Source: a virus
Lineage: Duplodnaviria > Heunggongvirae > Uroviricota > Caudoviricetes
Reading direction: 5' to 3' (one strand)
Virus record (IMG/VR): IMGVR_UViG_3300044618_002782
Coordinates: 1-64,000 of that record
DNA: 64,000 nucleotides
The first letter of the stretch is position 1. Each line of letters starts with the position of its first letter. The notes beneath the pieces are model-generated. The model made no database searches and had not been told where the DNA came from. It saw only the letters and a program-made list of their open reading frames with translations. Shown one piece after another: positions 895 to 45,642 of this stretch. The translations under genes were made by a program, and so were the position numbers.

Positions 895-898
895 ACCT

Positions 899-17259: not shown

Positions 17260-17286
17260 TTGTGTTAACTGTGTTAATATAAACAC

Positions 17287-25852: not shown

Positions 25853-26647
25853 TTACTTAGTGCCAAACCCCGGCTCAGGCCAACGACTAGCATTAAAGTT
25901 TACACGTTCAAAATCTGACAGGTCTAGTTTTATAGTACCAGGCTTGTAATTTTGCACTTCATTAACTATGTATTTCCCTAGCACCACGTTATTGTGTGGA
26001 CTCATGTGATTTGCTCTCATATCGTTAGTTATGTCGGCCACTTCTGAATCAGTACCGGTAACTTCTCCGAGAGAAATATGAATCAACGGTGTAGCAACTA
26101 TCATTCCGTCGAGTCCTGCTGCGATTTCAATATTGAATGGAAGGGTGAACAAGTGTATTTTTTTAAAGTCGCTGCATTTAAATTTACGATTAATTTCTTC
26201 AAACCATTGCATTTGTGCCCAAATCTGAAAGGAGTCGTCTCTTAGATAATTTATCCAATCTTTTAATGCAGAGGAAAGTTGTTGAGTTTCGAAGTCAAAA
26301 AGTTTTGGATCGCTGTAAATTAAATTCATTCCAATTTCAGACTTGCAGGAGTTAAATCTCCAGTAATCAGTATGTACAAATACCATAACTTCAATTCGTT
26401 CAACAAAGTCCGGATTTTTTTGAATATGCCGAAACAACCGATCTCGACTAAACCACCAGCTACGCCCAGCATATCCAAAACTGTAAAGATTAAGATTCAA
26501 TTCTTTTGCTGCAACATTGAGCCAGGTTGGGTGACCATGTTGTTGTTGATTCGACTCATGCCGGTTCGGACTTGGGCCTCTAAATGAACTGCAATAGCTG
26601 TCGCCAACGAAAACAATGTTTTTTTTCATTTTATTGATTGATACCAT
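25853..26647 (-). CDS. SGNH-like hydrolase-fold protein (candidate), convergent with 25095..25769
   Basis: KKNIVFVGDSYCSS shows a GDS block after a short N-terminus. Overlaps the rSAM gene 26626..28044 by 22 nt (coupled). Confidence 0.35.
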   Translation of the reverse strand: MVSINKMKKNIVFVGDSYCSSFRGPSPNRHESNQQQHGHPTWLNVAAKELNLNLYSFGYAGRSWWFSRDRLFRHIQKNPDFVERIEVMVFVHTDYWRFNSCKSEIGMNLIYSDPKLFDFETQQLSSALKDWINYLRDDSFQIWAQMQWFEEINRKFKCSDFKKIHLFTLPFNIEIAAGLDGMIVATPLIHISLGEVTGTDSEVADITNDMRANHMSPHNNVVLGKYIVNEVQNYKPGTIKLDLSDFERVNFNASRWPEPGFGTK

Positions 26648-28044
26648 TCTGCAAGATTAGGAAAAGTATTTATAAAGTTTTTACCTCTACGTTGATCATA
26701 TTGATCAAAAAAACTACGAAAATCTTTTTCCAGTAATTTTGTATCTTGAGCTGGATCTTTTTGATCATATACAGCAGATCCGTGTTGTATTTGTTTTTCT
26801 TGGTGCGGAATTTCTACAGTACTCAAATACTTGGCAAAGCGATCAATGTGATCAATTTCGATAGGCAAAAACCATTTATTTAAATTGTCTATGTTTAAAA
26901 ATTCCTGTATATCTTTGCTGTACTTTTGCCTCATTTCGTTTGGTAATACAACTATGTTCTGAAAGCTGGGAAATCGCACAGGATTCACACTCAACATAAG
27001 ACTGGTTGTTCCGTTGGAATTTGCAGGTGCAGTTTTTTTACGTTCCAATAACCAGTAAAGAAAATCTACAAATCCGTCGGCACTGATGGCACTCAATGTA
27101 CCGCAAATTCCAGTGTTGGCAACTACCCCACTGTTGAGAACCATATCTAGATTGCTATGCCATAGATCCCAATCGATGCCGTCTCTTACATATTCCATTT
27201 TTTGTCCAGTGCTTTCTGCGCTGGTGTACACCCATACAGGCACACTAATTCGACTACACATGTCTAAAAAACGTTTTAACGTATCTTGATCGTAAGCCAG
27301 ATTTGTGGTCATCTCAATTCTGCAATCAGCTTTGCCGGCATTGTCGGCCAGCCAAGACAGCAACTTCCACGTATGCCCAGACATCATTGGTTCGCCGCCT
27401 GATATACGAATCTGTTTTATAGTTTTGTGCAAACTTTCTTCCCACCAACGAAAAAATGCGTCTGCATAAGGATTTTGATCTCCGTAGTTGTATTTGATAA
27501 AACTATCGCCTGTATCAATGTAGTGGTTGCGATGATCTGTTGGCAAATTTAAATAAGGCCCGTTTTTTCTAATATCCTTGGCCCAGGTAGTGCTGATAGT
27601 AGGTGCACAATAACTACAAGCCAGATTACAGGTTCTGTCAAACACTATTTCTAAATAGGTAAGATCATAGTCAACATCCCAGCTTTGAGTAAATGCATTA
27701 TCCAGCTGTTGTTTGCTCATTTGGCCGCCCCAAGAGGTCCATGTTCTGTCGGCAAGGCCATTGGGATCAACTTCTTCCATAACCCAACAAAATTGGCAAT
27801 TTTTTGGTTTTTTTCCTTCCTGCATCATCTTGCGTTCTTGTTTTTTAATCGGAGTGTTGTGCAGGGCCCGAGGATTGGTTTTGATTGCTTCGAGATCTAT
27901 TGCATGCGGAGGGTTATGGTGACAACTAGTAGTCCAGCCTTGACCTAGCCACAGGCTGGCGTTGTACCATTTAGATCCACAAAAACTTGGACTTTTACTG
28001 TCTAAGTTTTCAATCTTCCATTGTTTCATTGCTTTGATATCCAT
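26626..28044 (-). CDS. radical SAM enzyme, paralog family B member 1
   Basis: CNLACSYC (CxxxCxxC) and ISGGEPMMSG (GGE SAM-binding motif). Family-specific N-terminus FCGSKWYNASLWLGQGWTTSCHH...NPRALHNTP...CQFCW. Conserved C-terminus YDQRRGKNFINTFPNLAEWYQSI. Confidence 0.65.
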   Translation of the reverse strand: MDIKAMKQWKIENLDSKSPSFCGSKWYNASLWLGQGWTTSCHHNPPHAIDLEAIKTNPRALHNTPIKKQERKMMQEGKKPKNCQFCWVMEEVDPNGLADRTWTSWGGQMSKQQLDNAFTQSWDVDYDLTYLEIVFDRTCNLACSYCAPTISTTWAKDIRKNGPYLNLPTDHRNHYIDTGDSFIKYNYGDQNPYADAFFRWWEESLHKTIKQIRISGGEPMMSGHTWKLLSWLADNAGKADCRIEMTTNLAYDQDTLKRFLDMCSRISVPVWVYTSAESTGQKMEYVRDGIDWDLWHSNLDMVLNSGVVANTGICGTLSAISADGFVDFLYWLLERKKTAPANSNGTTSLMLSVNPVRFPSFQNIVVLPNEMRQKYSKDIQEFLNIDNLNKWFLPIEIDHIDRFAKYLSTVEIPHQEKQIQHGSAVYDQKDPAQDTKLLEKDFRSFFDQYDQRRGKNFINTFPNLAEWYQSIK

Positions 28045-28176
28045 TATACTTTCCTATTAAACATACTTGTCAACTATGAGTTTAATTATTTTATTGATTA
28101 AAACAATGGTATACTCAAAATTAGATCACTGTAACTCTGATAATCAAAAACTCTCTCTCTAAAACAATTATATTTT

Positions 28177-29295
28177 TCATAAATTTTCAAGCTGCAAACT
28201 GTCTAAAAATTTTGTTATCTCAACACTTATATCACAGTCCGACATTTTTTTTGCAAGTTCTCGATTGAACATAAATCTTGGCATCAATGATTCTTTAAGA
28301 TCTTGCAAAGTATTTGATGGGACACGATTGATAAATTTCTCAAGGCTGCTGACAAATTGTTCTATTCGTAACAATGGGTCAGGTTCGTTGTCGTAGCCAT
28401 GATCAATTAATTCGTCAAATAAATCAAAACCTTGCTGTCTTGTTTTTTCAACCTGGCCACGTGGTCCCAATATCATTGGAATCTGACCAAGTACAAATGC
28501 TTTTACTGTTTTTTCAGTGAGCATGGGTACGGTCCAACTCCAGTCTGCGGGCACAGCAGATGAATATTCAAATCCAGACTCTAATACTACATTTACCAAG
28601 GCATTTTTTATTTTGTCATTGGTTATAGTAGATGACTTACAAAAAGATTGTTTGTCAGCAAGTTTTGATTTTAGATCAACAATCCCGTCAACAAAGCAAG
28701 GAAAATATTTTAGATTTTTCTCGTCAATACCTAAGGCTGTATGATTTCTTAAAAAAAATTCATTGCTATTGTCACATTCGGCTGCTGCACCAATGCTAAA
28801 ATATCCCAAATGTTGCAAGTTTCTGTTTAAGATAGAATTAATCACTCGTGTGCGACTGAATCGCGGAATTCTAGCTAAGGCAACAAAATGATGAGTTGCT
28901 TGATAAGAAAATGAGTCTTTCCACTGGTTATGGATATGCCAAAAAAATGTATTACAATCAGTTATTGTGGTATAATCAGCCTGTGGTGATTCCCAACCTG
29001 TTGTTAAATGAAGAATTTTCAACCCAGGATGTAATGATTTTAATGCCGGTAAGAATGAAAAACGATCAATCGTAGGAGATTCGTTGATACTGTGAATAAT
29101 CAGCAGCGGAGGATTCTTTTGAAACTTTGAATACTTTTCAATCAACAGTGCGTCTATCCCCTGAGTGATATTAAAATTGAATTGTGGACGATTAAAATCC
29201 AGTAAAATGCAAGGCAACGGATGCTGATCTATTAGATCAGCATACCTGATGTAGTGCATTTTTGGATCCAAATCAGGAATATAATCTACTATCAT
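28177..29295 (-). CDS. glycosyltransferase-like protein, paralog family member 3
   Basis: LTEKTVKAFVLGQIPMILGPRGQVEKTRQQGFDLFDELIDHGYD, the same C-terminal block as the other members. Confidence 0.4.
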   Translation of the reverse strand: MIVDYIPDLDPKMHYIRYADLIDQHPLPCILLDFNRPQFNFNITQGIDALLIEKYSKFQKNPPLLIIHSINESPTIDRFSFLPALKSLHPGLKILHLTTGWESPQADYTTITDCNTFFWHIHNQWKDSFSYQATHHFVALARIPRFSRTRVINSILNRNLQHLGYFSIGAAAECDNSNEFFLRNHTALGIDEKNLKYFPCFVDGIVDLKSKLADKQSFCKSSTITNDKIKNALVNVVLESGFEYSSAVPADWSWTVPMLTEKTVKAFVLGQIPMILGPRGQVEKTRQQGFDLFDELIDHGYDNEPDPLLRIEQFVSSLEKFINRVPSNTLQDLKESLMPRFMFNRELAKKMSDCDISVEITKFLDSLQLENL

Positions 29296-29296
29296 A

Positions 29297-30787
29297 TTAT
29301 GAACATACCTTTACATTGTATAAAATTTCAAATCTGTCAGCGTCTGCTCGATCATTGACCATGGGTTCGCTTCTGATGTTTAAACTGGTGTTTAGTAGCA
29401 TGGGGCAACCAGTGCGTGCGTACCAGGCTTCTAGCAGTTGTCTGATCCCTGACGCCAAGTCCGGAGCCACTGTTTGAACTCTACTAGTGCCATCCACATG
29501 CACAATAGCAGGATACAACTCAGGAGCCAAGCAGCGGGCGACAGATTGCATATAAGGGCTACTACCGAAACCACGAGGAAGATCAAAGTATTGATCAGCA
29601 TGCTCTTCCAAGATGACAGGGGCAAAGGGTCTAAATTTTTGTCTTCGTTTGATTTCATTTACTCGATCCTTGATATCGGGTCCGCGTGGATCAGCCAATA
29701 AACTTCTATTACCTAGAGCTCGCGGTCCAAATTCGGCAGCGCCGCTGGCCACGCCAACGATACGATCAGTGAGCAGGTGATCAACAACGGCATCGACAGG
29801 ATACTGGCCAGGTATAACATGGCCCAGATAGGGATGCTGCCAGTCAATACGACCACCAAAAGCCAAAGCGGCAGCACCAAGACTACTACCAGCATCACCG
29901 GGACAAGGCATAATCCAAATGTGATCAAAGTATTCTCCCAAGTTTCGATTGGCCAAGCAGTTGAGTGCCACTCCGCCCATGTATACTAAGTTCTTGCTCC
30001 AGTTAAATGCACGAGCACGTTTCATTACATTGTAAATTAATTGTTCTGCCAGTTCCTGCGCGGTGCTGGCAATGTCGTTGTTGTCAGCTGATTCTAACCA
30101 TTTATCATCGATGCCAGCATGCAAATTCTGAGTAAATCTTACTTCGTCCGAATCGGCTACTAAGTCCTGCCGCATGCGATCAATCCAGACAGCACGACCC
30201 CAGCCGGCCATGCCCATGGTAATGTATTCTTCGTCTAGTGGGTGTAGGCCAATGCGGCTAGTAATTCCACTATAAAACAGTCCGATTGAGTGGGGGTATC
30301 GTTGTCCCCACAGCTTTTTATATACTGCACGATTCTTTTGATCATATTCTGCTCCCCAAATACTTATGGTATCCCATTCTCCTATTGCGTCAATAACCAC
30401 AACAGTTGCTCGTGTGTAGGAACTGGTTTGAAATCCAGCAGCAGCATGACTTAGGTGATGATTATAACTGACTGCACGACCAGGACGTTGATGCAGCCAA
30501 GGCGACAATTGGTATTGAATATTTTGATTAAGTGTAATTCGGTTCCAATCAACACCTTGCCCACTGTACAATTGCCGTGACTGTTTTAGCCAGGGTCTTT
30601 CGTACCATGCAATAGTGTCTATGTCATAGTCGCGTATCTCGGCGACTAGGCCGTGGCATATATCTGCGTCATTCTTTCGTTTGCTGTATCGTTCACTGTG
30701 ACCTGCAAACACAATACGGCCGCGATCATCAATTAAGCTGACCGCAGCATCGTGGAAGCCGGCACTGACGCCCAATATATGTTTCAT
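29297..30787 (-). CDS. carbamoyltransferase (NodU/CmcH/TobZ family)
   Basis: N-terminal MKHILGVSAGFHDAAVSLIDD and SYNHHLSHAAAGF match the family hallmark HH.AHAAS. ~500 aa with Kae1-like N-domain plus YrdC-like C-domain. Confidence 0.75.
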   Translation of the reverse strand: MKHILGVSAGFHDAAVSLIDDRGRIVFAGHSERYSKRKNDADICHGLVAEIRDYDIDTIAWYERPWLKQSRQLYSGQGVDWNRITLNQNIQYQLSPWLHQRPGRAVSYNHHLSHAAAGFQTSSYTRATVVVIDAIGEWDTISIWGAEYDQKNRAVYKKLWGQRYPHSIGLFYSGITSRIGLHPLDEEYITMGMAGWGRAVWIDRMRQDLVADSDEVRFTQNLHAGIDDKWLESADNNDIASTAQELAEQLIYNVMKRARAFNWSKNLVYMGGVALNCLANRNLGEYFDHIWIMPCPGDAGSSLGAAALAFGGRIDWQHPYLGHVIPGQYPVDAVVDHLLTDRIVGVASGAAEFGPRALGNRSLLADPRGPDIKDRVNEIKRRQKFRPFAPVILEEHADQYFDLPRGFGSSPYMQSVARCLAPELYPAIVHVDGTSRVQTVAPDLASGIRQLLEAWYARTGCPMLLNTSLNIRSEPMVNDRADADRFEILYNVKVCS

Positions 30788-30871
30788 TTGTATATAAACG
30801 GATCTCTTTTACGAAGTTCTTTTAGTTTTTTTCTGTAACGTATTTCTAATTTGATTTTATCGATCAGTCTT

Positions 30872-31993
30872 TTAATCCAGCGCATGGTGTTCTCCTTGTT
30901 GGCCCGAATAGTCGTATCCGGGTTTCAGTCGATTGATTTGTTGTTGTTTATAATTGCTGTCAGTCCAACAATAATCAAATGTCTGAGTAACCCCGTTGAC
31001 TTCTATACTGTATATATCTAAGTGCGAACCCAGGATATTCCAAATCTCTTGGGCATCAGTTGTTCCAAAACTCTGTTGCAACAGAACTTGTGCTATGGGC
31101 AAGTACCCTAGGCTCAGATTCGGATCAGTAGGATCCCTATTGTTGTCAACAAGCCAGGCACGAAATCGATCTTGCTCTTGATCATGCCATGGTCTTTGTC
31201 CACCATACACAACGTCATTGCCCCATTCTACATCAAATTCTCCAGAGTAATATCTTAGATGCGTGATAGCTTTGCATACAGTATCTGTCAACACTGGTGC
31301 ACCTTCGTCTCTAAATACTTCAAATAAAGTTTTACCTATCTGTGTCCAGTGCATGTAGACCCCGCCAAGCACACGGTCATATCCATTGGTAACAAATTCT
31401 TGCCGATGCTGGGGCAATAAGTCGTAACGGTCTGCAGACAACCAGGTGGTGATCTGACTGGGTCGAACCCAAAAAGGTGCAGTGGCAGCTTTGCGTTGAC
31501 TCAATATGAGATTTTCCATTTCATGGCAAATATTATTGAGTTGTCGTATAGCATACTTGGTTTCGTAACTGGCACATGTATACCATGAACTGAGATTTTC
31601 TACTGTGCCTTGTAAAACTTCAAAATGATTGTGTAACTTGTTTAACAAGTTATGATTGATTCCGTTTTCAGCATAATCAAAACCCACAACAGTATCGGGT
31701 GTGTATGTTTCTGTAATTTGATAGTCTGTGAACTCAGAGTTTATAACAGCGACGGCCTGGGTTAATTCTCTGCAGAGATAAGGCAGTGTTCTTGCAGTGT
31801 TTGGAAATCCCATAAAACAAAAGTTTTTTTCTAGCAGTTTACCGGATGCTAGTAGTTTAGTTAATGCCACTTTCCAGTCTCTAGCCAAGAGATGATCTTG
31901 TACTTCAATTGTGTAATCAACTAAATCTCGACGAGATAACGGATTTCGTAGTACTACTTTAACTTGGGATTGCATTCCACCACCTTGCCACAT
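30872..31993 (-). CDS. hypothetical protein (373 aa)
   Basis: Intact ORF inside the island with no recognisable motif. Overlaps the downstream end of rSAM-A1 by 35 nt. Confidence 0.4.
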   Translation of the reverse strand: MWQGGGMQSQVKVVLRNPLSRRDLVDYTIEVQDHLLARDWKVALTKLLASGKLLEKNFCFMGFPNTARTLPYLCRELTQAVAVINSEFTDYQITETYTPDTVVGFDYAENGINHNLLNKLHNHFEVLQGTVENLSSWYTCASYETKYAIRQLNNICHEMENLILSQRKAATAPFWVRPSQITTWLSADRYDLLPQHRQEFVTNGYDRVLGGVYMHWTQIGKTLFEVFRDEGAPVLTDTVCKAITHLRYYSGEFDVEWGNDVVYGGQRPWHDQEQDRFRAWLVDNNRDPTDPNLSLGYLPIAQVLLQQSFGTTDAQEIWNILGSHLDIYSIEVNGVTQTFDYCWTDSNYKQQQINRLKPGYDYSGQQGEHHALD

Positions 31994-33260
31994 CGGGTCT
32001 TTGTTGTAGGATTTTTTGCATATCAGTTGGCGCCGATCTAATACTTTCTAATTTTAACACACGAGCTTTGCCTTTTGCAAGTCCTTGTTGGTATGTGTCA
32101 GGCCATTGTTCATCAAAGGTCGGCCGCTGTTTTAATTGCGTCAGCATGTCACGCATTGTGCCTGTGACTTCGGGTAACAACTCGTCAATCCAAGGATGTA
32201 GTATTGACCTAGGCAATGCCAACGGACTCATGACAATGTCAGGTGAAAAGCTGAATATGACCTTGGCTAGAATGTCAACTCCTAAATCTTTAGCTACTGC
32301 TATTATAGGAACAATTTCAAACATGCCGGGTAGGGTCAATGTAAAATCCAAGCGCATCTGACGAGGATGCCGCATACGATCAACACCATGACGAAAGTTT
32401 TCTAAAAATATCGACCAGTCAAGTCCTGTTCTGATGTATTCTCCGATGGATCCTGTTCCGTCGATGCTGGCACAAATTTGCCAATCGCGTATATGATCAA
32501 GTATATCACTGTATAAATTGGTACCACGATACTGTATGCGACTAAGATTAGTATTATATCTGGCATATACAAGTCCCCCATCTCCTTGATCAACAATTTG
32601 TTTCATGTACCGCCAATGCTGTTCGTACATGAGTGGCTCGCCGCCGACCCAATAAACTTCTTCTACTCTGTGTTCTGATACTGCTTGTGCAAATTCTGCT
32701 TCAATCTGGCTGTCTTGGAAAGCAGTTATTTCTTGTTTGACCGCAGGCTGCATCCAATTGTTTTTGGGATTCGTCCAGTCAATCATGTTGTGCTGCCGTT
32801 GTTCGCTTTCCCACGCACTGGACAACATGTCTCCACAAGTTCTACATTTGAAATTACATAAGTTACTGAATCGATAATCCCAACTCACAGGCTTCATTGT
32901 GGTTGCACCTGATTCATCGGTGTTAGACCAAATGTCATTGTACTTGTGTTTGAACAAGTGCCAGAAATAAGTCCTATAGACATCTGTATTTAATAATTTG
33001 TTGTTGCAAACTTCGCACTCGGGTAAAGTTTCACCAGCCATCATTCGACGACGTACCGACCGCATGTGTTCGCTGTTCCAGTGTTGATCCAAAGTGATAG
33101 GAATATATCTACCAGTACCTGCACTTGTGTCGATGTATTGTTGAAAGTTTTGTGCAGGTTCTCGACTGGCACAGCACATGCGTCGTTCAGTTTGCGGACT
33201 AAGATAGGTATGAGTCCAGGGTGCCATACAAAGCATATCAGGACGCGGGATCATATTCAA
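31959..33260 (-). CDS. radical SAM enzyme, paralog family A member 1
   Basis: CNFKCRTCG (CxxxCxxC) and WVGGEPLM. Family-A N-terminus C.APW...........CC (CMAPWTHTYLSPQTERRMCC). Confidence 0.6.
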   Translation of the reverse strand: MNMIPRPDMLCMAPWTHTYLSPQTERRMCCASREPAQNFQQYIDTSAGTGRYIPITLDQHWNSEHMRSVRRRMMAGETLPECEVCNNKLLNTDVYRTYFWHLFKHKYNDIWSNTDESGATTMKPVSWDYRFSNLCNFKCRTCGDMLSSAWESEQRQHNMIDWTNPKNNWMQPAVKQEITAFQDSQIEAEFAQAVSEHRVEEVYWVGGEPLMYEQHWRYMKQIVDQGDGGLVYARYNTNLSRIQYRGTNLYSDILDHIRDWQICASIDGTGSIGEYIRTGLDWSIFLENFRHGVDRMRHPRQMRLDFTLTLPGMFEIVPIIAVAKDLGVDILAKVIFSFSPDIVMSPLALPRSILHPWIDELLPEVTGTMRDMLTQLKQRPTFDEQWPDTYQQGLAKGKARVLKLESIRSAPTDMQKILQQRPDVARWWNAIPS

Positions 33261-34455
33261 TTATTGCCGCAAATTCAGGTTGTACCTTACAAAGATTCTG
33301 TTGTCGTTTACGATCTAGGTCTTTTATTTTCATACGCATCATGAATCCGTCGGTCGATGCACCACGATTCATAAAATTGCAGATTCGATCAAACTCTGCT
33401 CGGTATTGTTCTGGTATGTCCGATGTGCTTAGATGATTTTCTATTGCTGCTTTTGCTGTATCGGGCAGAGTTGCAATGCTAAAATACCAAGCATCGTGCA
33501 TCATGTTCCAGTAAACAAAATCAAAACTCTGTTCTGCAATCCAGCGAGCTACATGTTCCAAATAGTATACATTGAAGATGTTGACTGTGCAGCATACTTG
33601 CAAGCGTATATGAAGGTGACGGTTACGCATAGCCATAAAGCGAGCAATATTATGTTCTACTTCGGACCATACAGCATTGGATCGTTGATACTCAAATCTT
33701 TCGCCAACATCGTCGATGCTGAATGCAATTTCCACAGTCTTAAAATGTTGCCATATATTTTCAGCTTCTTCTGGAAATTGTGTACCGTTTGTATTGTAAT
33801 GTATCTCTACCTGCCCAGCAATGCCACGATCTACAATTCTTTCTAAGAATTCAAAATGTTCTTGAATCATAAAGGGTTCACCGCCAGTGAACTCAATGTA
33901 ACGTATCTGATCAGTTATTGTGTCAATTTCACTCCAGAACTTTTCGTTTTCACGTGGCCACGCACCAGCACGTAGCATCTGATAAGGAAATGTTTTTTTC
34001 TTATCATCTGCTGGATTCATGTCGTTGAGTTCTTCTGCAGCAAACTGGCTTGAACTCCAAGATCCACAAATACGGCATTTGAGATTACAAATGTTTCCCA
34101 ACTTCAAATCTAAAAACATCAAGGGTTTGGCATCTGCTGTCCAATCTTGATCTGGCAACATGTGCTTGAGTCGATCCAATGTGTGCATACGTTTGCTGGT
34201 TCGACCGGATCGTTCTTCATTCCAACATTTACGACAAGTCTGTGGTTGCTTGCCTGCTAAAAATTGCTCTCGTAGCTTTTGCATGTGTTGACTGTTTTGT
34301 ATGTTTGCAAAGTCGGCTGTGGCCAATTCAAACTTGCTGCCGTTGTCATCGACAATTTCGTCATCAGCAAGACAACAAGGTCTTACTGTACCAATAGGAC
34401 TGGCTTCAAGACTGACCCAAGGCAATACACAAAATTTATCGTGTGGTATGTTCAT
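33238..34455 (-). CDS. radical SAM enzyme, paralog family A member 2
   Basis: CNLKCRICG and FTGGEPFM. N-terminus CVLPWVSLEASPIGTVRPCC. Confidence 0.6.
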   Translation of the reverse strand: MNIPHDKFCVLPWVSLEASPIGTVRPCCLADDEIVDDNGSKFELATADFANIQNSQHMQKLREQFLAGKQPQTCRKCWNEERSGRTSKRMHTLDRLKHMLPDQDWTADAKPLMFLDLKLGNICNLKCRICGSWSSSQFAAEELNDMNPADDKKKTFPYQMLRAGAWPRENEKFWSEIDTITDQIRYIEFTGGEPFMIQEHFEFLERIVDRGIAGQVEIHYNTNGTQFPEEAENIWQHFKTVEIAFSIDDVGERFEYQRSNAVWSEVEHNIARFMAMRNRHLHIRLQVCCTVNIFNVYYLEHVARWIAEQSFDFVYWNMMHDAWYFSIATLPDTAKAAIENHLSTSDIPEQYRAEFDRICNFMNRGASTDGFMMRMKIKDLDRKRQQNLCKVQPEFAAIIEYDPAS

Positions 34456-36158
34456 TTTAATGCCTTTAATTCGGGTATAACTTCTAAGATATTTTCGTTG
34501 CGAATTTCATCTAGTTGATTTGTTTTTATCCAGAACTGTTCTATCAAAGATTGGTTATCAGTGGCATTCATAAAATTAATGGCACTCTCGAATCCATTGC
34601 TTGCTCGTCTCAACTGATCAAGCGGACTTAGCCAAGCCAAGTGTTCTTTATACCTTTTTTCGATTTTTTTCTTCAGCCCCGGTGTGGCAATATCAATACG
34701 GTAATGAGCAGGATCTGTTAAAATATTCACATTTAAATCTTGAGGTTTTATAAATCCTTTTTCCACCCAAGATCGATGAAAATCTGGCAGATGTAACGCA
34801 TTCATAATGCTAAGGGTAGCACTGATATAAAAGTCCACGTCCGGACAAATTTTCATCATTTGTCGACGGTTCTCTTCGACATCTTCCCAAACAGTGCCTT
34901 TTCGAATGTACTCGCCGTACTCCCACATGCCGTCGAGGCTGGCTCCTACCGAAACACTATCAAACTTCTTCCAATAATCAAACACTGTTCTATCTTTCAA
35001 TCGAGTCTCTGTGAAATTTGTGTTGTATATCAATCTCACGTCAAATTTTCCACGTTTTTCTAACTCTTCTAATATTCGATAGTGCTCGTCCATTAGTATA
35101 GGTTCTCCGCCGGCGAAGTATACTTGCTCAACATAGTCAATATGCTCAAGTAATTGATCCCACAAATCAGTTTCAAATTTTCCAGCAGATATCAATGCTT
35201 TATGATTTTTTCCGTAGTCAGGAGCAATTTTAATTTGATCTTGAAACCACTGACTGCTGAAACTTGGTCCGCAACTGCGACATTTTAGATTGCAAAGATT
35301 ACTAAATCTAACGTCCCAATAGGTCATCTTAAACTGATCTAAATGTCCGTCGGCATGGGTGCTATCAACTAAATTAATATGATGTCCGTGATGTTTATTA
35401 GCACTCGATCGCATTGAAAAAAATCCTGCCTGTTCACTTTCATAGCATCTATTACAAGTAGTCGATGGCTGATTTCTTAACATTTTTAATCGCAAATCTT
35501 TCATAGGAACATCGTTCCAAATTTCTTTAAGATTCTTTTCATTGGTCTGACCCACAGTGGATGATTCCTTGTATAAGGCTCCACAGCAAGGCAACACCCG
35601 TCCGTTGGGTTCGACATGCATGTGTATCCAAGGATACATACAAAATGTTTTGCTTTCCAGCAACAATTCTTGTTGACTCTGCGTTAAATCTTCAATTGCA
35701 ATCTTGACAGGTCTAACTGAATTATAGTTATAGCCTGTATTTGTAGTGGAAATTCTTTTGTCTAATAGCAGATCACTTTTAAAATAGTCAAATACAACCG
35801 GTATTGGATCTGTGTTGTTTTTCATTAACCATTCCTGAGCTACACAAAACTGATCTGACTCCGGTACCAATACCACAGCAAAAAAATTACTAATATCAAC
35901 TTGATTAAGTCCTTCCAGGAGATTTTTTAAAATTAATCCTGCTGAATCATCTGAGTTAACATACTCGTCGCTTTGAGTCAGCGTAAAAAGAATACGCTGA
36001 TTAGTCTGGTACGATGACTGATAAATCTTTTTTAATTGTGCTCTTAACCAGCCAGTTCGTTCGATTGAACTAAACGAATACCAATTATCGAGATTTATCA
36101 TGCCTACTATCTCGTAGTCAGTGCTGTATTTTTTTACTAGTTCTTCAAGTGAATTCAT
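34452..36158 (-). CDS. radical SAM enzyme, paralog family A member 3, with ~170-aa N-terminal extension
   Basis: CNLKCRSCG and FAGGEPILM. CMYPWIHMHVEPNGRVLPCC is preceded by an extra N-terminal domain. ATGA overlaps on both sides. Confidence 0.6.
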   Translation of the reverse strand: MNSLEELVKKYSTDYEIVGMINLDNWYSFSSIERTGWLRAQLKKIYQSSYQTNQRILFTLTQSDEYVNSDDSAGLILKNLLEGLNQVDISNFFAVVLVPESDQFCVAQEWLMKNNTDPIPVVFDYFKSDLLLDKRISTTNTGYNYNSVRPVKIAIEDLTQSQQELLLESKTFCMYPWIHMHVEPNGRVLPCCGALYKESSTVGQTNEKNLKEIWNDVPMKDLRLKMLRNQPSTTCNRCYESEQAGFFSMRSSANKHHGHHINLVDSTHADGHLDQFKMTYWDVRFSNLCNLKCRSCGPSFSSQWFQDQIKIAPDYGKNHKALISAGKFETDLWDQLLEHIDYVEQVYFAGGEPILMDEHYRILEELEKRGKFDVRLIYNTNFTETRLKDRTVFDYWKKFDSVSVGASLDGMWEYGEYIRKGTVWEDVEENRRQMMKICPDVDFYISATLSIMNALHLPDFHRSWVEKGFIKPQDLNVNILTDPAHYRIDIATPGLKKKIEKRYKEHLAWLSPLDQLRRASNGFESAINFMNATDNQSLIEQFWIKTNQLDEIRNENILEVIPELKALK

Positions 36159-37483
36159 AATGAATTATACCATTCTTTTAATTTTGGAAAGGTCGCTGCA
36201 AAGTCTTTTCCTCTGCGCTGGTCATATTGAACGTAAAACTGTCGAAAATCATTCAACAGCCGAGGCATATCAAATGTTTCACTGTGCGGTGTTTTAACTG
36301 TGTCAAGATAATCAATCAAGCGTTGTAAATGATTTAGTTCGTGTTCCTGTAACACAGGATTATCTGCGTTGTAATCTAACCATGCTTCTAAATTTTTTCG
36401 GTAACGTGTTTTGATATTGTCTGGCAAGATCAAAGGGCTTTGGAAACTGGGAAAACGCAAGATGTTTAAAGTAAAATTAACACGCTCTCGACCGTAGATA
36501 TTTTTTAGTGCTACCAGAGCTGATAAAAATTCTGGCAGTGTTTCCAAACACAAAGCATTGATAGTACACATGACATGCACTGCACGAACAGGACTTTCCA
36601 ACAACTTGATTACATTGTTGCACCAGGCTGCATAATCAAGACCGTCTCGTATGTATTCTGCGTGTGTACCGTAGCATTCGTTACTGGTATATACGTCAAT
36701 CGCTAGTCCATCAACACTGTTGATAAATCGTTCCAGATCAATATCTGCACCCAAATTACTGTTGATGGCCAGACGTGTTGAGCTCTTGTTGCGATTGTCT
36801 CGAAACCAATCAATCAGGCGCCAGGTATATCCCGACATCAATGGCTCACCGCCGGTTATTCTTAACTCATCCAAGGTACGATGCAGGTCTGATTCCCACC
36901 ACTGAAAGAAAGCTTCCACATAAGGATTGGTTTCGCCAAATCGATATAACTGTGCCGAATCGTGCGCATGAGTAAAGTGATTTCGACCATCGCTTATCAA
37001 CCCAACATAGGCGCCATTTTTTCGAATGTCGTTGACCCAGGTACTGCTGAAAGCAGGGTTACAATAGCTACAGGCAAACTGACAAGTGCGATCAAATGCA
37101 ATTTCTAGAGTTTTGAGGTTAACATCTTGATCTACTGGCGTTGCTGCTGCTGTTTGCAGTGCATGTATAGGATATATTTTACTTTTGTAAACCCGGTCGC
37201 TGATGTTTTCTCTACCGATGTCCTCGATTTTCCAACAGTATTCGCAGCCGGGTGGCCGTTCTCCTGCAATCATTTCAGCACGATCGCGTTTCTTTTCTGG
37301 TGTGTTATGCAAGGCACGAGGATTGGCCTGTACTGCTTCTACGCTGACATGATGCGCCGGTGGGTGATGGCAACTGGTAGTCATGCCAGAGCCCAACCAT
37401 ATAGTGGCGTTGTACCATTTGGCTCCGCAAAAACTGTCACTTATGGGATCTAATACCTGCTGGCGGAATTCTAAATCATTCAC
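36155..37483 (-). CDS. radical SAM enzyme, paralog family B member 2
   Basis: CQFACSYC and ITGGEPLMSG. N-terminus FCGAKWYNATIWLGSGMTTSCHH...CEYCW. C-terminus YDQRRGKDFAATFPKLKEWYNSL. Confidence 0.65.
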   Translation of the reverse strand: MNDLEFRQQVLDPISDSFCGAKWYNATIWLGSGMTTSCHHPPAHHVSVEAVQANPRALHNTPEKKRDRAEMIAGERPPGCEYCWKIEDIGRENISDRVYKSKIYPIHALQTAAATPVDQDVNLKTLEIAFDRTCQFACSYCNPAFSSTWVNDIRKNGAYVGLISDGRNHFTHAHDSAQLYRFGETNPYVEAFFQWWESDLHRTLDELRITGGEPLMSGYTWRLIDWFRDNRNKSSTRLAINSNLGADIDLERFINSVDGLAIDVYTSNECYGTHAEYIRDGLDYAAWCNNVIKLLESPVRAVHVMCTINALCLETLPEFLSALVALKNIYGRERVNFTLNILRFPSFQSPLILPDNIKTRYRKNLEAWLDYNADNPVLQEHELNHLQRLIDYLDTVKTPHSETFDMPRLLNDFRQFYVQYDQRRGKDFAATFPKLKEWYNSL

Positions 37484-38619
37484 GGTCTGTGTTGCTTTAT
37501 AAAATTAAAAAATTTGTCAGCGAATTCTGACTTGATGCAAGATGAAAGCTGCTGTAGATGCTGTTGATTGTATTTACAAATACTTTCGCTGGCCTGCATA
37601 AAAGATGTTAAATCTTGTTGGCATAAATCATTGACCACTGCCGCAATACGATCCATCCTTTCTTGACTGTTATCTATCGAATCAAAACTTTCGTCAATTA
37701 AACTGTCAAAGGTTTGGAATCCAAGATTGCGCATGTCGCGATAAAAACCTGCATTGCTGGCCACAATCCAAGGATGACCAACAGCCAAGGGTTTGGCTAT
37801 TTTTTCTGTGCGAAAGCTGTAAGGATAGTCAAACACAGTTTCGGTGACCAAGCTGAAATAGGTATCGCAATAGGGTTCTGCTTGTAAATATATTTCTCCC
37901 CAGGTGTAATTAAACAGTTCGTTTTTTACAAATGTACGTTCTGCTGGACCAGGAGAGATCACCGTAGTACGATATTGCTCGACTTCATACTTGGCTGGCA
38001 ACCTCTGCAGTGGTGTTGTTGTTGCCATGAGATTGATTCCGTTGTATTTTAAATTGAATTGTCTGCTAATTGTGGGACGGCTGTCCAGCATGGTCCACAG
38101 TGCATGTTTTAGCAAATCCTGTTGTTGAAATTTATGCCAAAGATATTTTCTATGCGGTCGTGCCCGGCCGTTGAGAAACATGAACTTATAGGGCTTGTTT
38201 GTTTGTGAAAATATGTCCCCGGCTCGATCAATTTCCCGATGATTTTCAGGATAATCTAAAATTCTACAAAGAAAATGATCGTGTTGTATGTAAGGATAGC
38301 AGCTTTCCATTGCACCGCCACCGATAATTAAAATTTTACCTTCCAGAACCAATGTGGTCAATTTCAACATGTTTAGTTGGTCAACCAGTGTTCCGGATCC
38401 TTCGGCACTGTTGCCGAACACCATTACAAATCTAGGATCCTGAGCTAGCTCTTTAAATTTTTCTTGATTTTCTACTACTTGCAATCTACCCAGTACATAT
38501 ACACTGTTGGGTATAGGATCATGGGAAGCAAAGTCCCAAAATTCTGCGTCTGCCCAAGGTTTCAATTCCTGATACACTTCCGACATGGTGTCTATGACTA
38601 AATTACGCGGACCGAGCAT
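37480..38619 (-). CDS. glycosyltransferase-like protein, paralog family member 4
   Basis: RTEKIAKPLAVGHPWIVASNAGFYRDMRNLGFQTFDSLIDESFD, the same C-terminal block. Confidence 0.4.
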   Translation of the reverse strand: MLGPRNLVIDTMSEVYQELKPWADAEFWDFASHDPIPNSVYVLGRLQVVENQEKFKELAQDPRFVMVFGNSAEGSGTLVDQLNMLKLTTLVLEGKILIIGGGAMESCYPYIQHDHFLCRILDYPENHREIDRAGDIFSQTNKPYKFMFLNGRARPHRKYLWHKFQQQDLLKHALWTMLDSRPTISRQFNLKYNGINLMATTTPLQRLPAKYEVEQYRTTVISPGPAERTFVKNELFNYTWGEIYLQAEPYCDTYFSLVTETVFDYPYSFRTEKIAKPLAVGHPWIVASNAGFYRDMRNLGFQTFDSLIDESFDSIDNSQERMDRIAAVVNDLCQQDLTSFMQASESICKYNQQHLQQLSSCIKSEFADKFFNFIKQHRP

Positions 38620-40003
38620 GTGCTTCGCACTCCTTCCACCAGGTGGTCATTTCAGGAAATGTTTTTAAAAAATTAGTTCCACGTCGACGATCATGCTCAC
38701 TAAAAAACTTATAAAAGTCTGCTTTCTTTTCTGCAACACAATCAGTTCCAGATCGCATCCAGGCAATGTCTCGACGCATACGCTGCACTTCGTAGTCTTT
38801 GAAACCGTGGAAAGGATCCTCTGGGGTTTCTAAATTTAATTCCATCCAGTCTGCTACACGTTCCAAAATTCCAGCATACGCGGGCGGAAGTATTTGTAGA
38901 CTTTGCCAAGCAGGTTGACGCAGCAACGGTGTGTCAAACCACACACGTTGATAAGTTTTGCTATATGCTCTGCGCATTGCTAATATATCTTCTAGTAGCT
39001 TTTGCAAACCTAAAATACTGAGATTATTCATTGTGATAATAAATGTAAGGCTGTTGCGATTAGGGATTTCAAACAAGAAGTGATGTGAGTAAGCCATTAC
39101 ACGATCGTAATTCATACCATGTCTAATATATTCAGCTTGATGTGCATTGCCACTATCGAGACTAACATACTGCATAAAGTGTTCGATTTGTGTATTGCAT
39201 AATTGTTTTACATAACCAATATACTTTTCAAACAAGCCAGTTTCGACACTGAAGTTGCTGGTAACATTTAAATGCAGGTCAGGATTGGGCAAGGCCAGCA
39301 CATAGTCAAACACCCGGTAGGTATTCTTATCCATAAGTGGTTCGCCGCCGGTCATACGAAAATGTTTCAACTGTGGATATAGTGTAGGCCACCATCGCCA
39401 AAATGCTTCTACGTAAGGATTAGCGTCCCTAGCAGGAATAGGCCGGTTACGGCCAGTAAAATGACTAGGATCGTTGTGAATACGACTCGTAGGGTATCCG
39501 CCCAGACGGTTAATTTCTTGTTCCCATGTGGAACTAAATTGAGGACTGCAATAACTACAAGCAAGATTACAAGCGTGATTAAAATTAACCTCCACATAAC
39601 TAGGAACGACATCTTCATCTCCGGTTGAGTTTTTAACAAAATCTAATGCATCAGCAGCCCAAGGCTCTCCAGATCGATAGTGACGATCACTTAGGTTACC
39701 AGTATCTTCAATGTTCCAACAGTAACTACATTCTGCAGGACGTTCCTGGCGTAACATGATTTTGCGCTGTTCTTTCTTGAATAGTGTATTGTGTAATGCA
39801 CCTGGGTTGTCTTCCAGTAGCGTGGCATCAATGGCATGCAAAGGAGGATGATAGCATGAATTGTTCAACCCAGTAGGCAAGTGCAAGCTAACTTGTTTCC
39901 ATTTGGCCAAGCATAATCCTGTACCGAGTTCTTGTTTCATTTGTTCTGCTGAACTCATGAATCGACTTTTGTTGTCAAACAATTTGTCTCCCTTATTTGA
40001 CAC
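38603..40003 (-). CDS. radical SAM enzyme, paralog family B member 3
   Basis: CNLACSYC and MTGGEPLMDKN. N-terminus LCLAKWKQVSLHLPTGLNNSCYH...CSYCW. C-terminus HDRRRGTNFLKTFPEMTTWW. Confidence 0.65.
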   Translation of the reverse strand: MSNKGDKLFDNKSRFMSSAEQMKQELGTGLCLAKWKQVSLHLPTGLNNSCYHPPLHAIDATLLEDNPGALHNTLFKKEQRKIMLRQERPAECSYCWNIEDTGNLSDRHYRSGEPWAADALDFVKNSTGDEDVVPSYVEVNFNHACNLACSYCSPQFSSTWEQEINRLGGYPTSRIHNDPSHFTGRNRPIPARDANPYVEAFWRWWPTLYPQLKHFRMTGGEPLMDKNTYRVFDYVLALPNPDLHLNVTSNFSVETGLFEKYIGYVKQLCNTQIEHFMQYVSLDSGNAHQAEYIRHGMNYDRVMAYSHHFLFEIPNRNSLTFIITMNNLSILGLQKLLEDILAMRRAYSKTYQRVWFDTPLLRQPAWQSLQILPPAYAGILERVADWMELNLETPEDPFHGFKDYEVQRMRRDIAWMRSGTDCVAEKKADFYKFFSEHDRRRGTNFLKTFPEMTTWWKECEAHARSA

Positions 40004-40810
40004 TTAATTTAGCCCCATCTGTTGTCGAATTTCAGTTCCAGATATTTGGGTAATTTCTTTGTCAAATGTTTCCTCACCAGATGTATATCCTACTCCACGC
40101 CCCCATCCAATGTGTACAATATTGGGAACCACTTGTATTTCGTACTGTCCTTGGTACAAGGGATCTAAGTCGTGTCTGATACGCTGTTTAACTTCTTCTA
40201 GACCAAATGGGTTAGAACCTTGCCATCCTTGCACGTCACGTATTTGAATAACGACCTGTCCAGTTTTTGCAAGTAGTCTTTCAAACAGAGCACGATGTCC
40301 CGGATGCCAAGGTTGCCAGCGTCCCAACATCTGCACTGTTTCTTTGCGCCAGTCAAACACTGGACGACGCTGATTAGACAAAATGTGATCAGCAACAAAC
40401 ACTGACCATTTGGCAGCATCTTGTTCGATTATTCTAAAGTCATATACAGTAGGTGGGATAAAGGCCTTGTTGGTATCTTCGTATCGCCCTTGCTCAATTG
40501 TATCCATCCAGACTGTCCAGTCTGCTTTAAAGTTATTGCGCATTTCCACTAACGGAGCAACAAAGTCGCAAATAACATAATCGGCAGCAGACTGTTCTGC
40601 TAATTCTGCCATTCTGAGACTTTGACGAATGCGTCCAGTTTCGGTAAAGTCCCAGTCATTGAATTTCTTGCGTACTTCGTCAGCATTAAACCAATCGACT
40701 GTAATGCCGAATCCTTCGTATTTAATATCCTCAACGTGATTTTTTAATGCTGTTGCTAGTGTAGTTTTTCCTGCGCCAGGAAGTCCCATTATTAATATTT
40801 TTTGTGCCAT
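40004..40810 (-). CDS. fusion protein: APS-kinase-like P-loop domain + compact HxGH nucleotidyltransferase-like domain
   Basis: N-terminal ILIMGLPGAGKTTLATAL. ADEVRKKFNDWDFTETGRIRQSLRMAELAEQSAADYVICDFVAPL parallels CysC GDNVRHGLN.DLGFS..DR.ENIRRVAEVAKL...AG...ISP. C-terminal GRWQPWHPGHRALFE is a Q...P.HxGH motif, cf. cytidylyltransferase-like/ATP-sulfurylase HxxH. Confidence 0.5.
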   Translation of the reverse strand: MAQKILIMGLPGAGKTTLATALKNHVEDIKYEGFGITVDWFNADEVRKKFNDWDFTETGRIRQSLRMAELAEQSAADYVICDFVAPLVEMRNNFKADWTVWMDTIEQGRYEDTNKAFIPPTVYDFRIIEQDAAKWSVFVADHILSNQRRPVFDWRKETVQMLGRWQPWHPGHRALFERLLAKTGQVVIQIRDVQGWQGSNPFGLEEVKQRIRHDLDPLYQGQYEIQVVPNIVHIGWGRGVGYTSGEETFDKEITQISGTEIRQQMGLN

Positions 40811-40822
40811 ATTATCAACTCC

Positions 40823-41434
40823 TTAATTAATTGGATATTTCCAGTCGGACAAATAAAATTTTACTTCATCTAGATTTTCTATCATTAACTCTGGTAAAAA
40901 TGCATAAGAATTTTTTTTGATTGTCGATTTTGTAAAATCTATGTCTTCGTAGTACAACGTCGTGTCTGCTTGAAATTGATCGTCTATTAGTTGTTCTATA
41001 ATAAATTGCTCTATATCATTGTAACTTACACAATAAGACTTTGGGGCAACATAATCCTGAAATTGATGATCAAAGTGATAAATGGCTCCTATTGATTTAA
41101 AATAAATCCAACTAGCAAACTGCTTGACTTTATCTCTACGTCTTATATTAACAATATACGAATTTTCCTTTAATTGTTTAATTTTTGGTAAGATTCCAAT
41201 TTTGCCATTGAGCTGTACTGCGTGTGCTAACATCGGTCTTGCTGATATAGATAAAAAAGGATCAAAATCTCTCCAGGGTGTTTTTGAGCACTGACTCATT
41301 GCAATTTCTCCTAGATAATTTAGAGCATTTTTTTCTTTCTTTATCATCGAACCCATTGGATGTGTACCCGATCTTGGCGAACCTATAATCAAAATATTTT
41401 TATTTTGAGATTGCGCAATTATATTGTTCACCAT
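40823..41434 (-). CDS. sulfotransferase-like P-loop protein (Stf0-like candidate)
   Basis: N-terminal ILIIGSPRSGTHPMGSMI resembles the sulfotransferase 5'-PSB loop (P[KR]SG[ST]). ~200 aa. Adjacent to the APS-kinase-like gene. Confidence 0.4.
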   Translation of the reverse strand: MVNNIIAQSQNKNILIIGSPRSGTHPMGSMIKKEKNALNYLGEIAMSQCSKTPWRDFDPFLSISARPMLAHAVQLNGKIGILPKIKQLKENSYIVNIRRRDKVKQFASWIYFKSIGAIYHFDHQFQDYVAPKSYCVSYNDIEQFIIEQLIDDQFQADTTLYYEDIDFTKSTIKKNSYAFLPELMIENLDEVKFYLSDWKYPIN

Positions 41435-45623: not shown

Positions 45624-45642
45624 TTATTTGTTTCCAATTAGA

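Follow-up and report, generated by a model that had tools for sequence, protein, structure and literature searches.

What a large uncultured phage would do with six radical SAM enzymes encoded in a single locus is the question raised by the window, by which is meant the whole 64,000-nucleotide stretch analysed (positions 1 to 64,000 of the IMG/VR virus record IMGVR_UViG_3300044618_002782). An earlier note on this DNA had proposed two separate three-member families of such enzymes, with extra N-terminal cysteines that could hold an auxiliary cluster. The proteins are considered here through their family, their distribution, their neighbours and finally the chemistry that they might perform.

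Family membership and cysteine architecture

The translations bear out six open reading frames, all on the minus strand, at 31959-33260, 33238-34455 and 34452-36158 (family A) and at 26626-28044, 36155-37483 and 38603-40003 (family B). Their radical SAM identity is upheld by full-length matches to the NCBIfam model NF033640 and by CxxxCxxC and GGE motifs in each, the latter reading GGEP in all six translations. The A members carry CN(F/L)KCR(T/I/S)CG, and the B members C(N/Q)(L/F)ACSYC, C.(F/Y)CW and a C-terminal (Y/H)D(Q/R)RRG(K/T)(N/D)F..TFP......W, all as first described. Two details needed adjustment: the PW...CC cysteine pair of family A is present but has a gap of 13 residues rather than 11-12, and the SCHH motif of family B holds for most members but reads SCYH in one.

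NF033640, named N_Twi_rSAM, is defined in NCBIfam as an N-terminal-twitch radical SAM family (twitch domain-containing radical SAM protein). It matches all six proteins over approximately positions 1-398 of its 398-position model, with E values of 1e-80 to 1e-119 and scores of 271.5-399.1 bits, against a curated cut-off of 170 bits. The two proposed families turn out not to be separate, since their profiles align over 407 columns (99.8% probability, E 8e-29) as sub-branches of this one family. That alignment, together with the NF033640 E values, also rules out coincidental CxxxCxxC and GGE motifs. The six proteins are thus members of a known family, one that is catalogued but never characterised: no characterised member or solved structure was found in the literature or the PDB, and the only relevant mention in the literature was of radical SAM cassettes in PMC7029224.

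Within sub-branch B, the 466-residue product of 38603..40003 (GTG start, NF033640 E 8.4e-87) has twitch cysteines at 31, 50, 92 and 95 and radical SAM cysteines at 145, 149 and 152, and the 442-residue product of 36155..37483 (GTG start) has them at 19, 38, 80 and 83 and at 134, 138 and 141. The third member, at 26626..28044, is a sixth, accessory enzyme of 472 residues (E 1.2e-80). Sub-branch A consists of a 568-residue protein (34452..36158, E 2.3e-119 over residues 169-566), a 405-residue protein (33238..34455, E 2.2e-101, Pfam Radical_SAM 2.4e-10) and a 433-residue protein with a TTG start (31959..33260, E 1.7e-84). The first of these has a recurrent 168-residue N-terminal extension that is homologous to the N-termini of the related proteins P0137, P0213, P0223, P0228, P0266 and P0267.

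Aligned within and between the sub-branches, the six proteins share seven invariant cysteines, four N-terminal and three in the CxxxCxxC motif, with the common spacing C-x18-C-x41-51-C-x2-C-x45-52-C-x3-C-x2-C, so that the N-terminal cysteines survive rigorous alignment in every copy. In an alignment of 104 diverse relatives three of the twitch cysteines are invariant and the fourth is kept in at least 90%; CxxxCxxC and GGE are invariant there too, and Pfam Radical_SAM also matches. In family A the Pfam SPASM model is matched over all of its positions (1-67 of 67) at residues 9-78, 11-86 and 173-239, with E values down to 3e-13 (1.2e-06 for 33238-34455 at 9-78; 3.1e-13 for 34452-36158 at 173-239). 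The N-terminal motif is a twitch, or truncated SPASM, domain, and its cysteines are the predicted ligands of one auxiliary cluster. The idea that they serve an auxiliary site was sound, their conservation and arrangement being compatible with such an Fe-S site, but the identity of the domain had been overlooked. Each enzyme would accordingly be expected to bind two [4Fe-4S] clusters, and from the four conserved cysteines the auxiliary one is predicted to be fully cysteine-ligated, as in BtrN. Because SPASM and twitch domains canonically stand at the C-terminus, the layout of the six proteins is permuted, and no C-terminal SPASM or twitch cysteine cluster appears in the alignments, in keeping with the original description.

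An AlphaFold model of 36155-37483 (pLDDT 95.6) divides without remainder into the twitch domain, the core and a helical bundle at the C-terminus, with strands at residues 25-29 and 34-36 between the first two cysteines. Solved structures align to it over the radical SAM core only, headed by BlsE, anSME, SkfB and MoaA, and searches of PDB sequences with the radical SAM proteins gave only weak core matches.

Copy number, paralogy and distribution

Six radical SAM genes in one phage locus had been regarded as unusual. This is true for cultured phages, where a family-B homologue is found in 1 of 50,697 records, but not for this lineage, for which six copies are normal, since the copy number is 4-7 in every one of the 43 related viral loci that have full flanks. 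Translated searches of cultured phages and plasmids found Ralstonia phage RsoM2USA (53%, with neighbours all annotated 'hypothetical'), distant Vibrio phage matches (24%) and one Methylomagnum plasmid gene, and no family-B homologue was found in HTVC008M or Melnitz. A megablast of positions 26000-41000 against the 50,697 phage records gave no match, so none of these is an annotated close relative.

The paralogy is ancient. For five of the six, the orthologues found in other phages and in arrays labelled Bdellovibrionota are closer than any paralogue in the window, which rules out recent local duplication as the origin of the set. For example, 38603-40003 has orthologues at 88% in loci L004-L007 and at 48-50% in L016, L017 and L077, and 31959-33260 at 95% in L002 and 49.5% in L023. 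For the accessory gene 26626-28044, L116 (74%) and L149 (56%) are the only loci with a close orthologue. The gene forms a cassette with 28177-29295 and 25853-26647 that is absent from the related locus L003, where the enzyme is missing at the matching position. A duplicated module of one glycosyltransferase and one radical SAM gene had also been suggested; glycosyltransferase-like genes do lie beside two of the family-B genes, but the case for duplication is weak, at 23% identity over 106 residues for the glycosyltransferase pair and 42% for the radical SAM pair.

Beyond the window, a search with a profile of the six proteins retrieves, among representatives of 50%-identity clusters, 5,683 at E<=1e-30 and 11,847 at E<=1e-10, and at least 574 stretches of IMG/VR viral contigs encode relatives. 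NF033640-type members recur inside glycan loci, where 4-8 paralogues stand in tandem or two or three enzymes are fused into one, and fusions of radical SAM with GT2 domains exist among the relatives. Bdellovibrionota chromosomal arrays have up to 8 copies, beside GT1 and GT2 glycosyltransferases, Wzm/Wzt-like exporters and carbamoyltransferases. This cellular distribution is biased towards family-B-like genes because the genome scan used the family-B alignment only. Loci were sorted by judgement, on identity and contig size, as phage-like or cellular; phage sequence binned in error may account for several MAG contigs of 14-183 kb, and only contigs above 0.4 Mb are safely chromosomal (L030, L057, L063, L065, L070, L073, L077 and L079).

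The sugar island and the structural module

The six genes belong to a sugar island of approximately 17.6-44.3 kb, which encodes GT-B glycosyltransferases, a carbamoyltransferase, an NDP-sugar dehydratase and an aminotransferase, and is without membrane proteins. Baseplate and fibre genes lie immediately upstream of it, the order on the minus strand being baseplate wedge, a 4691-residue protein, fibre-type genes and then the glycosyltransferase and radical SAM island. Directly upstream of the island, two fibre or baseplate-type structural genes (44640..47001, minus strand; a 327-residue Thr/Gly/Ala-rich protein and one of 452 residues) have PHROG structural matches and occur in 40 and 34 of the 43 viral loci. 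One of them, 45643-47001, is 44% identical over 48% of the query to the PA5oct 'virion structural protein / baseplate wedge and tail pin'.

Four proteins of the island are GT-B-like, a status confirmed by fold for one and assigned by sequence similarity for three. The confirmed case (37480..38619, minus strand, 379 residues) has the two-Rossmann-domain GT-B fold and is flanked and overlapped by two radical SAM genes. Its distant paralogue in the accessory cassette (28177..29295, minus strand, 372 residues, E 5e-6) has no close orthologue among 80 viral loci, and is related to 21817-22908 and 22892-24082. The latter two encode GT-B-like paralogues of 363 and 396 residues (21817..24082), which converge on the island from the plus strand, match the other two at phmmer E 1e-9 to 3e-17 and are conserved in L003 and L087. 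NDP-sugar supply is represented, also on the plus strand, by an NAD-dependent epimerase/dehydratase (17607..18575; Pfam Epimerase 7.1e-43, GDP_Man_Dehyd 2.5e-34) and a DegT/DnrJ/EryC1 aminotransferase (18530..19660; Pfam DegT_DnrJ_EryC1 5.6e-62).

The remaining island genes described here are on the minus strand. A NodU/CmcH-type carbamoyltransferase of 496 residues (29297..30787; Pfam Carbam_trans_N 2.3e-32, Carbam_trans_C 4.3e-49) is found in 41 of the 43 viral loci, and has homologues beside N_Twi radical SAM genes in nine loci labelled non-phage. The conserved 373-residue core protein at 30872..31993 (40 of 43 loci) matched nothing in Pfam, NCBIfam, PHROGs or the PDB. A 308-residue protein (41428..42354, 42 of 43 loci), whose family is fused to N_Twi radical SAM domains elsewhere, is homologous to the N-terminal 216 residues of the fusion protein P0160 and to 19638-21818 of the window. 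Two paralogous proteins of about 265 residues (42675..44256, comprising 42675-43469 and 43453-44256; mutual phmmer E 4e-7) occur in 41 and 37 of the 43 loci; they had no family or PDB match and by eye look like putative GT-A/GT8 enzymes. Two genes are rarer. The fusion of an APS-kinase-like P-loop kinase with a nucleotidyltransferase-like domain (40004..40810, 268 residues; Pfam APS_kinase 3.6e-09), weakly NMN-adenylyltransferase-like at its C-terminus, is an accessory gene in 4 of 43 loci, and the 264-residue protein that ends the minus-strand operon (25853..26647) has a homologue in one of the 43 and no family match. PDB searches with the unassigned island proteins gave no match. Promoter and terminator scans were uninformative because the counts (57 and 19) lay at the shuffled expectation (51 and 15).

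Proposed chemistry and comparison with known systems

Taken with this setting, the six paralogous two-cluster enzymes probably carry out radical oxidation or epimerisation-type tailoring of glycans, with glycosyltransferase, carbamoyl and aminosugar partners, and the phage array most likely builds or edits an unusual sugar coat. The glycan context suggests more particularly a two-electron oxidation at a hydroxyl-bearing carbon of a sugar or cyclitol. The core cluster would cleave SAM to give a 5'-deoxyadenosyl radical, which would abstract hydrogen from a carbon of the sugar, and the N-terminal cluster, if fully cysteine-ligated, could then oxidise the substrate radical by taking up its electron, a role also proposed for the BtrN cluster. 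This may lead overall to oxidation to a keto-sugar, to epimerisation if hydrogen is returned, or to formation of a new bond, C-C or C-O. Each of the six ancient paralogues may handle a different sugar or position, and with four GT-B-like proteins, several other putative transferases, the carbamoyltransferase and a supply of NDP-aminosugar the product would be a heavily tailored glycan. If this tailoring occurs, the acceptor is somewhat likelier to be cytoplasmic, for instance the virion fibre or baseplate proteins, which is favoured over host envelope polysaccharide; remodelling of the latter is a lesser though appreciable prospect.

Several other explanations have to be set against glycan tailoring. 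Acting as SPASM/twitch RiPP maturases do, the enzymes could form thioether or carbon-carbon cross-links in a protein substrate, or epimerise its residues; the substrate would be the nearby fibre or baseplate proteins or a small peptide that has escaped recognition, and the glycosyltransferases would perform a separate decoration step. Such protein modification is unlikely, as Pfam and NCBIfam searches of the six detected no PqqD/RRE-type domain at E <0.1, and the modelled protein is wholly twitch domain, core and helical bundle. The known fusions are moreover to GT2 domains, the commonest assignable neighbours are glycan enzymes and Wzm/Wzt-like exporters, and a large fibre protein is found in only one of about 72 non-phage loci.

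Hypermodification of phage DNA, in which modified bases would receive sugars from the GT-B proteins and the radical SAM enzymes and carbamoyltransferase would tailor the attached groups so as to evade host restriction, is more improbable again. Marginally less credible still is a soluble aminoglycoside-like or nucleoside-sugar metabolite made during infection in place of a polymer- or protein-bound glycan. The nearest structural and sequence neighbours (BlsE, MoaA, viperin and BtrN-type chemistry) do use small sugar-like or nucleotide substrates, and a DegT aminotransferase with a dehydratase is typical of aminosugar natural-product pathways. Against such a metabolite stand at least four GT-B-like proteins alongside other putative transferases, the conserved position by the fibre module, the exporter-linked polysaccharide contexts in bacteria and the island's lack of a metabolite resistance or export gene.

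Glycan tailoring is thus the preferred reading. It can be extended, tentatively and with considerable doubt, to N-terminal-twitch arrays in general as a widespread and as yet unstudied radical sugar-editing machinery, used by jumbo phages on fibre or baseplate glycoproteins and by predatory Bdellovibrionota on surface or adhesin glycans, which would diversify or harden host-contact structures. The sugars could be oxidised, epimerised or cross-linked, perhaps once they are already part of the glycan. Were this so, each paralogue would represent a new glycan-modifying reaction. If the enzymes do tailor sugars, glycobiology would gain several unexplored radical reactions, and abundant aquatic phages and predatory bacteria a route for diversifying prey-contact structures. 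The window provides a compact and complete test set of approximately 27 kb, comprising six enzymes, the glycosyltransferases that would partner them and proteins that are candidate acceptors.

Of the known systems, NF033640 itself shares the N-terminal four-cysteine domain, CxxxCxxC, GGE and a C-terminal D..R....FP region with all six proteins; nothing disqualifying was found, and one window copy has the extra 168-residue N-terminal domain. The cysteine spacing of BtrN, C-x18-C...C-x2-C, resembles that of the six. BtrN, the twitch radical SAM dehydrogenase of butirosin biosynthesis, acts on a sugar-like aminocyclitol and has one auxiliary [4Fe-4S] cluster, the proposed electron acceptor in its two-electron oxidation, held by four cysteines that, unlike in MoaA, leave no open Fe site (PMC9012708). 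Alignment with BlsE, anSME, SkfB, MoaA and SuiB is confined to the core, where identity is 12-17%; in these enzymes the auxiliary domain is C-terminal, the SPASM members bind two auxiliary clusters, and the substrate is a peptide, GTP or a nucleoside sugar. Canonical SPASM maturases of the anSME, PqqE and SuiB type likewise have a C-terminal seven-cysteine SPASM domain with two auxiliary clusters, whereas the window proteins have an N-terminal domain with four conserved cysteines. In the DesI/DesII system, an aminotransferase and a radical SAM enzyme act on a TDP-aminosugar; DesII, which is not known to have an auxiliary cluster, ranks well below the SPASM/twitch enzymes.

At the level of the locus, the closest parallel is the pelagimyophage 'host recognition cluster', a hypervariable island in the structural region that adjoins a giant structural gene and tail fibres and includes glycosyltransferases and radical SAM cassettes, whose family identity and array structure were not identified (Zaragoza-Solas et al. 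2020, PMC7029224). The structural genes of the window resemble those of PA5oct/Rak2/Atu_ph07-type jumbo phages and not those of the T4-like pelagimyophages, but the window likewise has a variable glycosyltransferase and radical SAM island in its structural region, with a conserved core and a variable radical SAM cassette at its end.

A single family with an N-terminal twitch domain

The six radical SAM genes lie on the minus strand, exactly where the earlier note had placed them: 31959-33260, 33238-34455 and 34452-36158 (family A), and 26626-28044, 36155-37483 and 38603-40003 (family B). The motifs quoted for them can be read in the translated sequences, apart from two minor slips: the gap between PW and CC in family A is 13 residues rather than 11-12, and one family-B member has SCYH instead of the SCHH ascribed to all three. 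Between 40003 and 30872, successive genes share 4-35 nt and no intergenic gap remains, which gives this stretch the appearance of a single translationally coupled unit.

All six proteins match, end to end, the NCBIfam model NF033640, "N_Twi_rSAM, twitch domain-containing radical SAM protein", with scores of 271-399 bits (E 1e-80 to 1e-119) against a curated cut-off of 170 bits. Since one model covers all six, families A and B, previously treated as separate, are sub-branches of a single family. The two profiles can be aligned across 407 columns (99.8% probability, E 8e-29), taking in both the N-terminal cysteines and the C-terminal D..R..N...P region. Pfam Radical_SAM matches the middle of all six proteins and Pfam SPASM, with full model coverage and E-values down to 3e-13, the N-terminus of all three family-A proteins.

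Seven cysteines are invariant in the six proteins, arranged as C-x18-C-x41-51-C-x2-C-x45-52-C-x3-C-x2-C. In a 104-sequence alignment, where identities reach down to about 18%, three of the four N-terminal cysteines, the three core cysteines and GGE never vary; the remaining N-terminal cysteine is kept in at least 90% of sequences. The N-terminal cysteines are thus conserved in both alignments, as had been proposed, and the motifs regarded as extra are therefore the twitch domain itself, lying ahead of the core and not behind it. SPASM and twitch domains are described in a review as C-terminal extensions (PMC9012708). A marginal alignment (E 0.07) links the N-terminal domain of the 34452-36158 product to SuiB residues 367-429 (of 459), which form the C-terminal SPASM region of that enzyme. 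A permuted order of domains would fit this match. The N-terminal-twitch layout is not new, because the proteins belong to a catalogued family.

Residues 1-168 of the 34452-36158 product (minus strand) form a recurrent N-terminal extension domain without assigned function. It is absent from the orthologues in two related loci, L002 and L003, and is fused to N-terminal-twitch (N_Twi) radical SAM proteins in at least eight family cluster representatives (P0137, P0200, P0213, P0223, P0228, P0246, P0266 and P0267). Searching 1.84 billion representatives with a profile gave 5,683 matches at E<=1e-30; among the 150 best-ranked (P0121-P0270), 25 carry two or three complete N_Twi units fused into a single chain of at most 1466 aa. 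Other fusions join an N_Twi enzyme to a GT2 domain (P0157, P0187) or, in P0160, to the family of window gene 41428-42354. The domain common to 41428-42354 and 19638-21818 (both minus strand) corresponds to the N-terminal 216 residues of P0160 and has no family or PDB match.

The sugar-gene island and its phage setting

The window comes from a jumbo-type myovirus. Resemblance to virion proteins of the PA5oct, Rak2 and Atu_ph07 type is seen in its baseplate wedge, in a 452-aa protein (45643-47001) and in the N-terminal 1500 residues of a 4691-aa protein, and the minus-strand operon runs from baseplate wedge through giant protein and fibre-type genes to the island, the sugar-gene region of about 17.6-44.3 kb. 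A 199,497-bp public contig carries identical copies of four of the six radical SAM proteins. The giant protein is a single ORF (47819-61894, minus strand) without a Pfam match; over the initial 1500 residues it shares about 31% identity with a 'virion structural protein' of Atu_ph07 and PA5oct-like jumbo phages, and one related locus has a 4643-aa counterpart.

The island encodes a GT-B fold glycosyltransferase (37480-38619) with three distant paralogues (28177-29295, 21817-22908 and 22892-24082), a NodU/CmcH-type carbamoyltransferase, a paralogous pair of 265-aa proteins, the 308-aa product of 41428-42354, whose family is fused to a radical SAM enzyme elsewhere, and an accessory kinase and nucleotidyltransferase-like fusion (40004-40810), with an NDP-sugar epimerase/dehydratase and a DegT aminotransferase on the converging plus strand. 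No TM-like segments are found in proteins between 17607 and 44561, nor any flippase, polymerase or exporter in the island.

Those two plus-strand genes, the epimerase/dehydratase being NAD-dependent, belong to a tightly spaced run (16573-19660) in which they follow a ThyX thymidylate synthase gene and a 107-aa ORF; the run probably supplies an NDP-aminosugar to the island. Minus-strand genes at 40004-41434 form a rare accessory pair. Of the 43 related loci, 4 have the first gene, the fusion of an APS-kinase-like P-loop kinase with a nucleotidyltransferase-like domain, and none has the second, whose 203-aa product has no match and resembles, by eye only, a sulfotransferase P-loop. The start codons of 19638-21818 (minus) and 21817-22908 (plus) diverge with a 2-nt overlap at 21817/21818, and one may be mis-assigned.

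Outside the island, the phage also encodes a TctA-family subunit of a tricarboxylate transporter (9486-10814, minus strand; Pfam E 4.9e-52), which has 12 TM-like segments; no family match was obtained for either gene downstream of it (8592-9470 and 7501-8595). The 696-aa product of 860-2950 (plus strand; PHROG 35576) shares 49% identity with a protein of Methylophilales phage Melnitz annotated adenylate/guanylate cyclase / curlin repeat protein, and 36% with one from Pelagibacter phage HTVC008M; the structural genes of the window resemble those of another phage group.

Relatives in phages, Bdellovibrionota and a plasmid

The radical SAM genes are rare in cultured phages and common in metagenomes. 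Across 50,697 cultured-phage records, family B is found once (Ralstonia phage RsoM2USA, 53%), and the matches to family A are all distant and confined to four records; 36155-37483 matches more than 8,000 metagenome proteins, and in IMG/VR relatives are encoded on at least 574 stretches. Each of the 43 viral loci whose 21-kb flanks are complete has four to seven copies (mode 5), and the partners are kept: the carbamoyltransferase in 41, a 373-aa protein in 40, the GT-B enzyme in 37 and a fibre-type 327-aa gene in 40. The sixth radical SAM gene (26626-28044) forms an accessory cassette with 28177-29295 and 25853-26647; at the insertion site, L003 has the carbamoyltransferase followed directly by converging genes and L002 has different extra radical SAM genes. 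Two 'Haliscomenobacter sp.' MAG contigs (L009 and L010; 183 and 148 kb) carry phage-like arrays of 5-6 copies, about 70% identical to the window; either phage DNA was binned into a Bacteroidota MAG, or these contigs hint at the host.

Across 185,579 species genomes, family-B relatives occur mainly in Bdellovibrionota, some of them on megabase contigs and some in an isolate, Bdellovibrio sp. HCB2-146, and there they are often arrayed (eight copies in 17 kb at L017). Their neighbours include glycosyltransferases of GT2 and GT1, exporters made up of ABC_tran plus ABC2_membrane, carbamoyltransferases and other radical SAM enzymes. A Methylomagnum plasmid gene, named "twitch domain-containing radical SAM protein" by NCBI, lies among GT39, GT2, GT4, UbiA, polyprenyl synthetase and ABC exporter genes. 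Five of the six window copies are more similar to orthologues in Bdellovibrionota-labelled arrays (36-57% identity) than to any window paralogue (27-42%), and some adjacent pairs keep the same order. The paralogy is thus old, and the array probably travelled as one block.

In Bdellovibrio sp. HCB2-146 (L073, 1950-7847), a 1965-aa fibre-type protein that ends in a Peptidase_S74 (endosialidase chaperone) domain adjoins two N_Twi enzymes and three GT2 genes; four other loci have small S74-like ORFs. The commonest neighbour of Bdellovibrionota family-B enzymes is a family of about 312 aa (L024 9017-9955 and 17 other loci), with an SD(L/I)DL motif conserved by eye; it has no Pfam match and is absent from the phage window.

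Proposed role and comparison with known enzymes

What is observed is that the proteins belong to NF033640, keep the ligand residues expected for two clusters, have a confidently predicted fold and lie repeatedly beside glycan enzymes; the six enzymes probably tailor a glycan. That they instead cross-link proteins is unlikely, hypermodification of DNA by the island is highly improbable, and synthesis of a soluble metabolite by the array is hardly to be expected. For glycan tailoring, two targets can be considered. Modification of virion proteins is favoured by the absence of membrane components, by an orientation shared with the late structural genes and by a conserved location behind the fibre genes; remodelling of the host envelope is favoured by the exporter-rich surroundings in bacteria and by the interpretation given for the pelagimyophage 'host recognition cluster' (PMC7029224).

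That paper mentions radical SAM cassettes in aquatic myophage fibre/glycosyltransferase islands once, without analysis. A literature search found no description of phage cassettes as N-terminal-twitch enzymes or as conserved multi-paralogue arrays, nor of the same arrays, partners and fusions in Bdellovibrionota. The array offers an entry point to radical sugar chemistry that is possibly new.

During tailoring, the core cluster would cleave SAM and the 5'-deoxyadenosyl radical would take hydrogen from a sugar carbon, with the four-cysteine N-terminal cluster accepting an electron. The outcome may be oxidation, epimerisation or bond formation, and each paralogue may serve one position of the glycan built by the neighbouring transferases. 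With four cysteine ligands and no open iron site, the predicted N-terminal cluster is like that of BtrN and unlike that of MoaA (PMC9012708).
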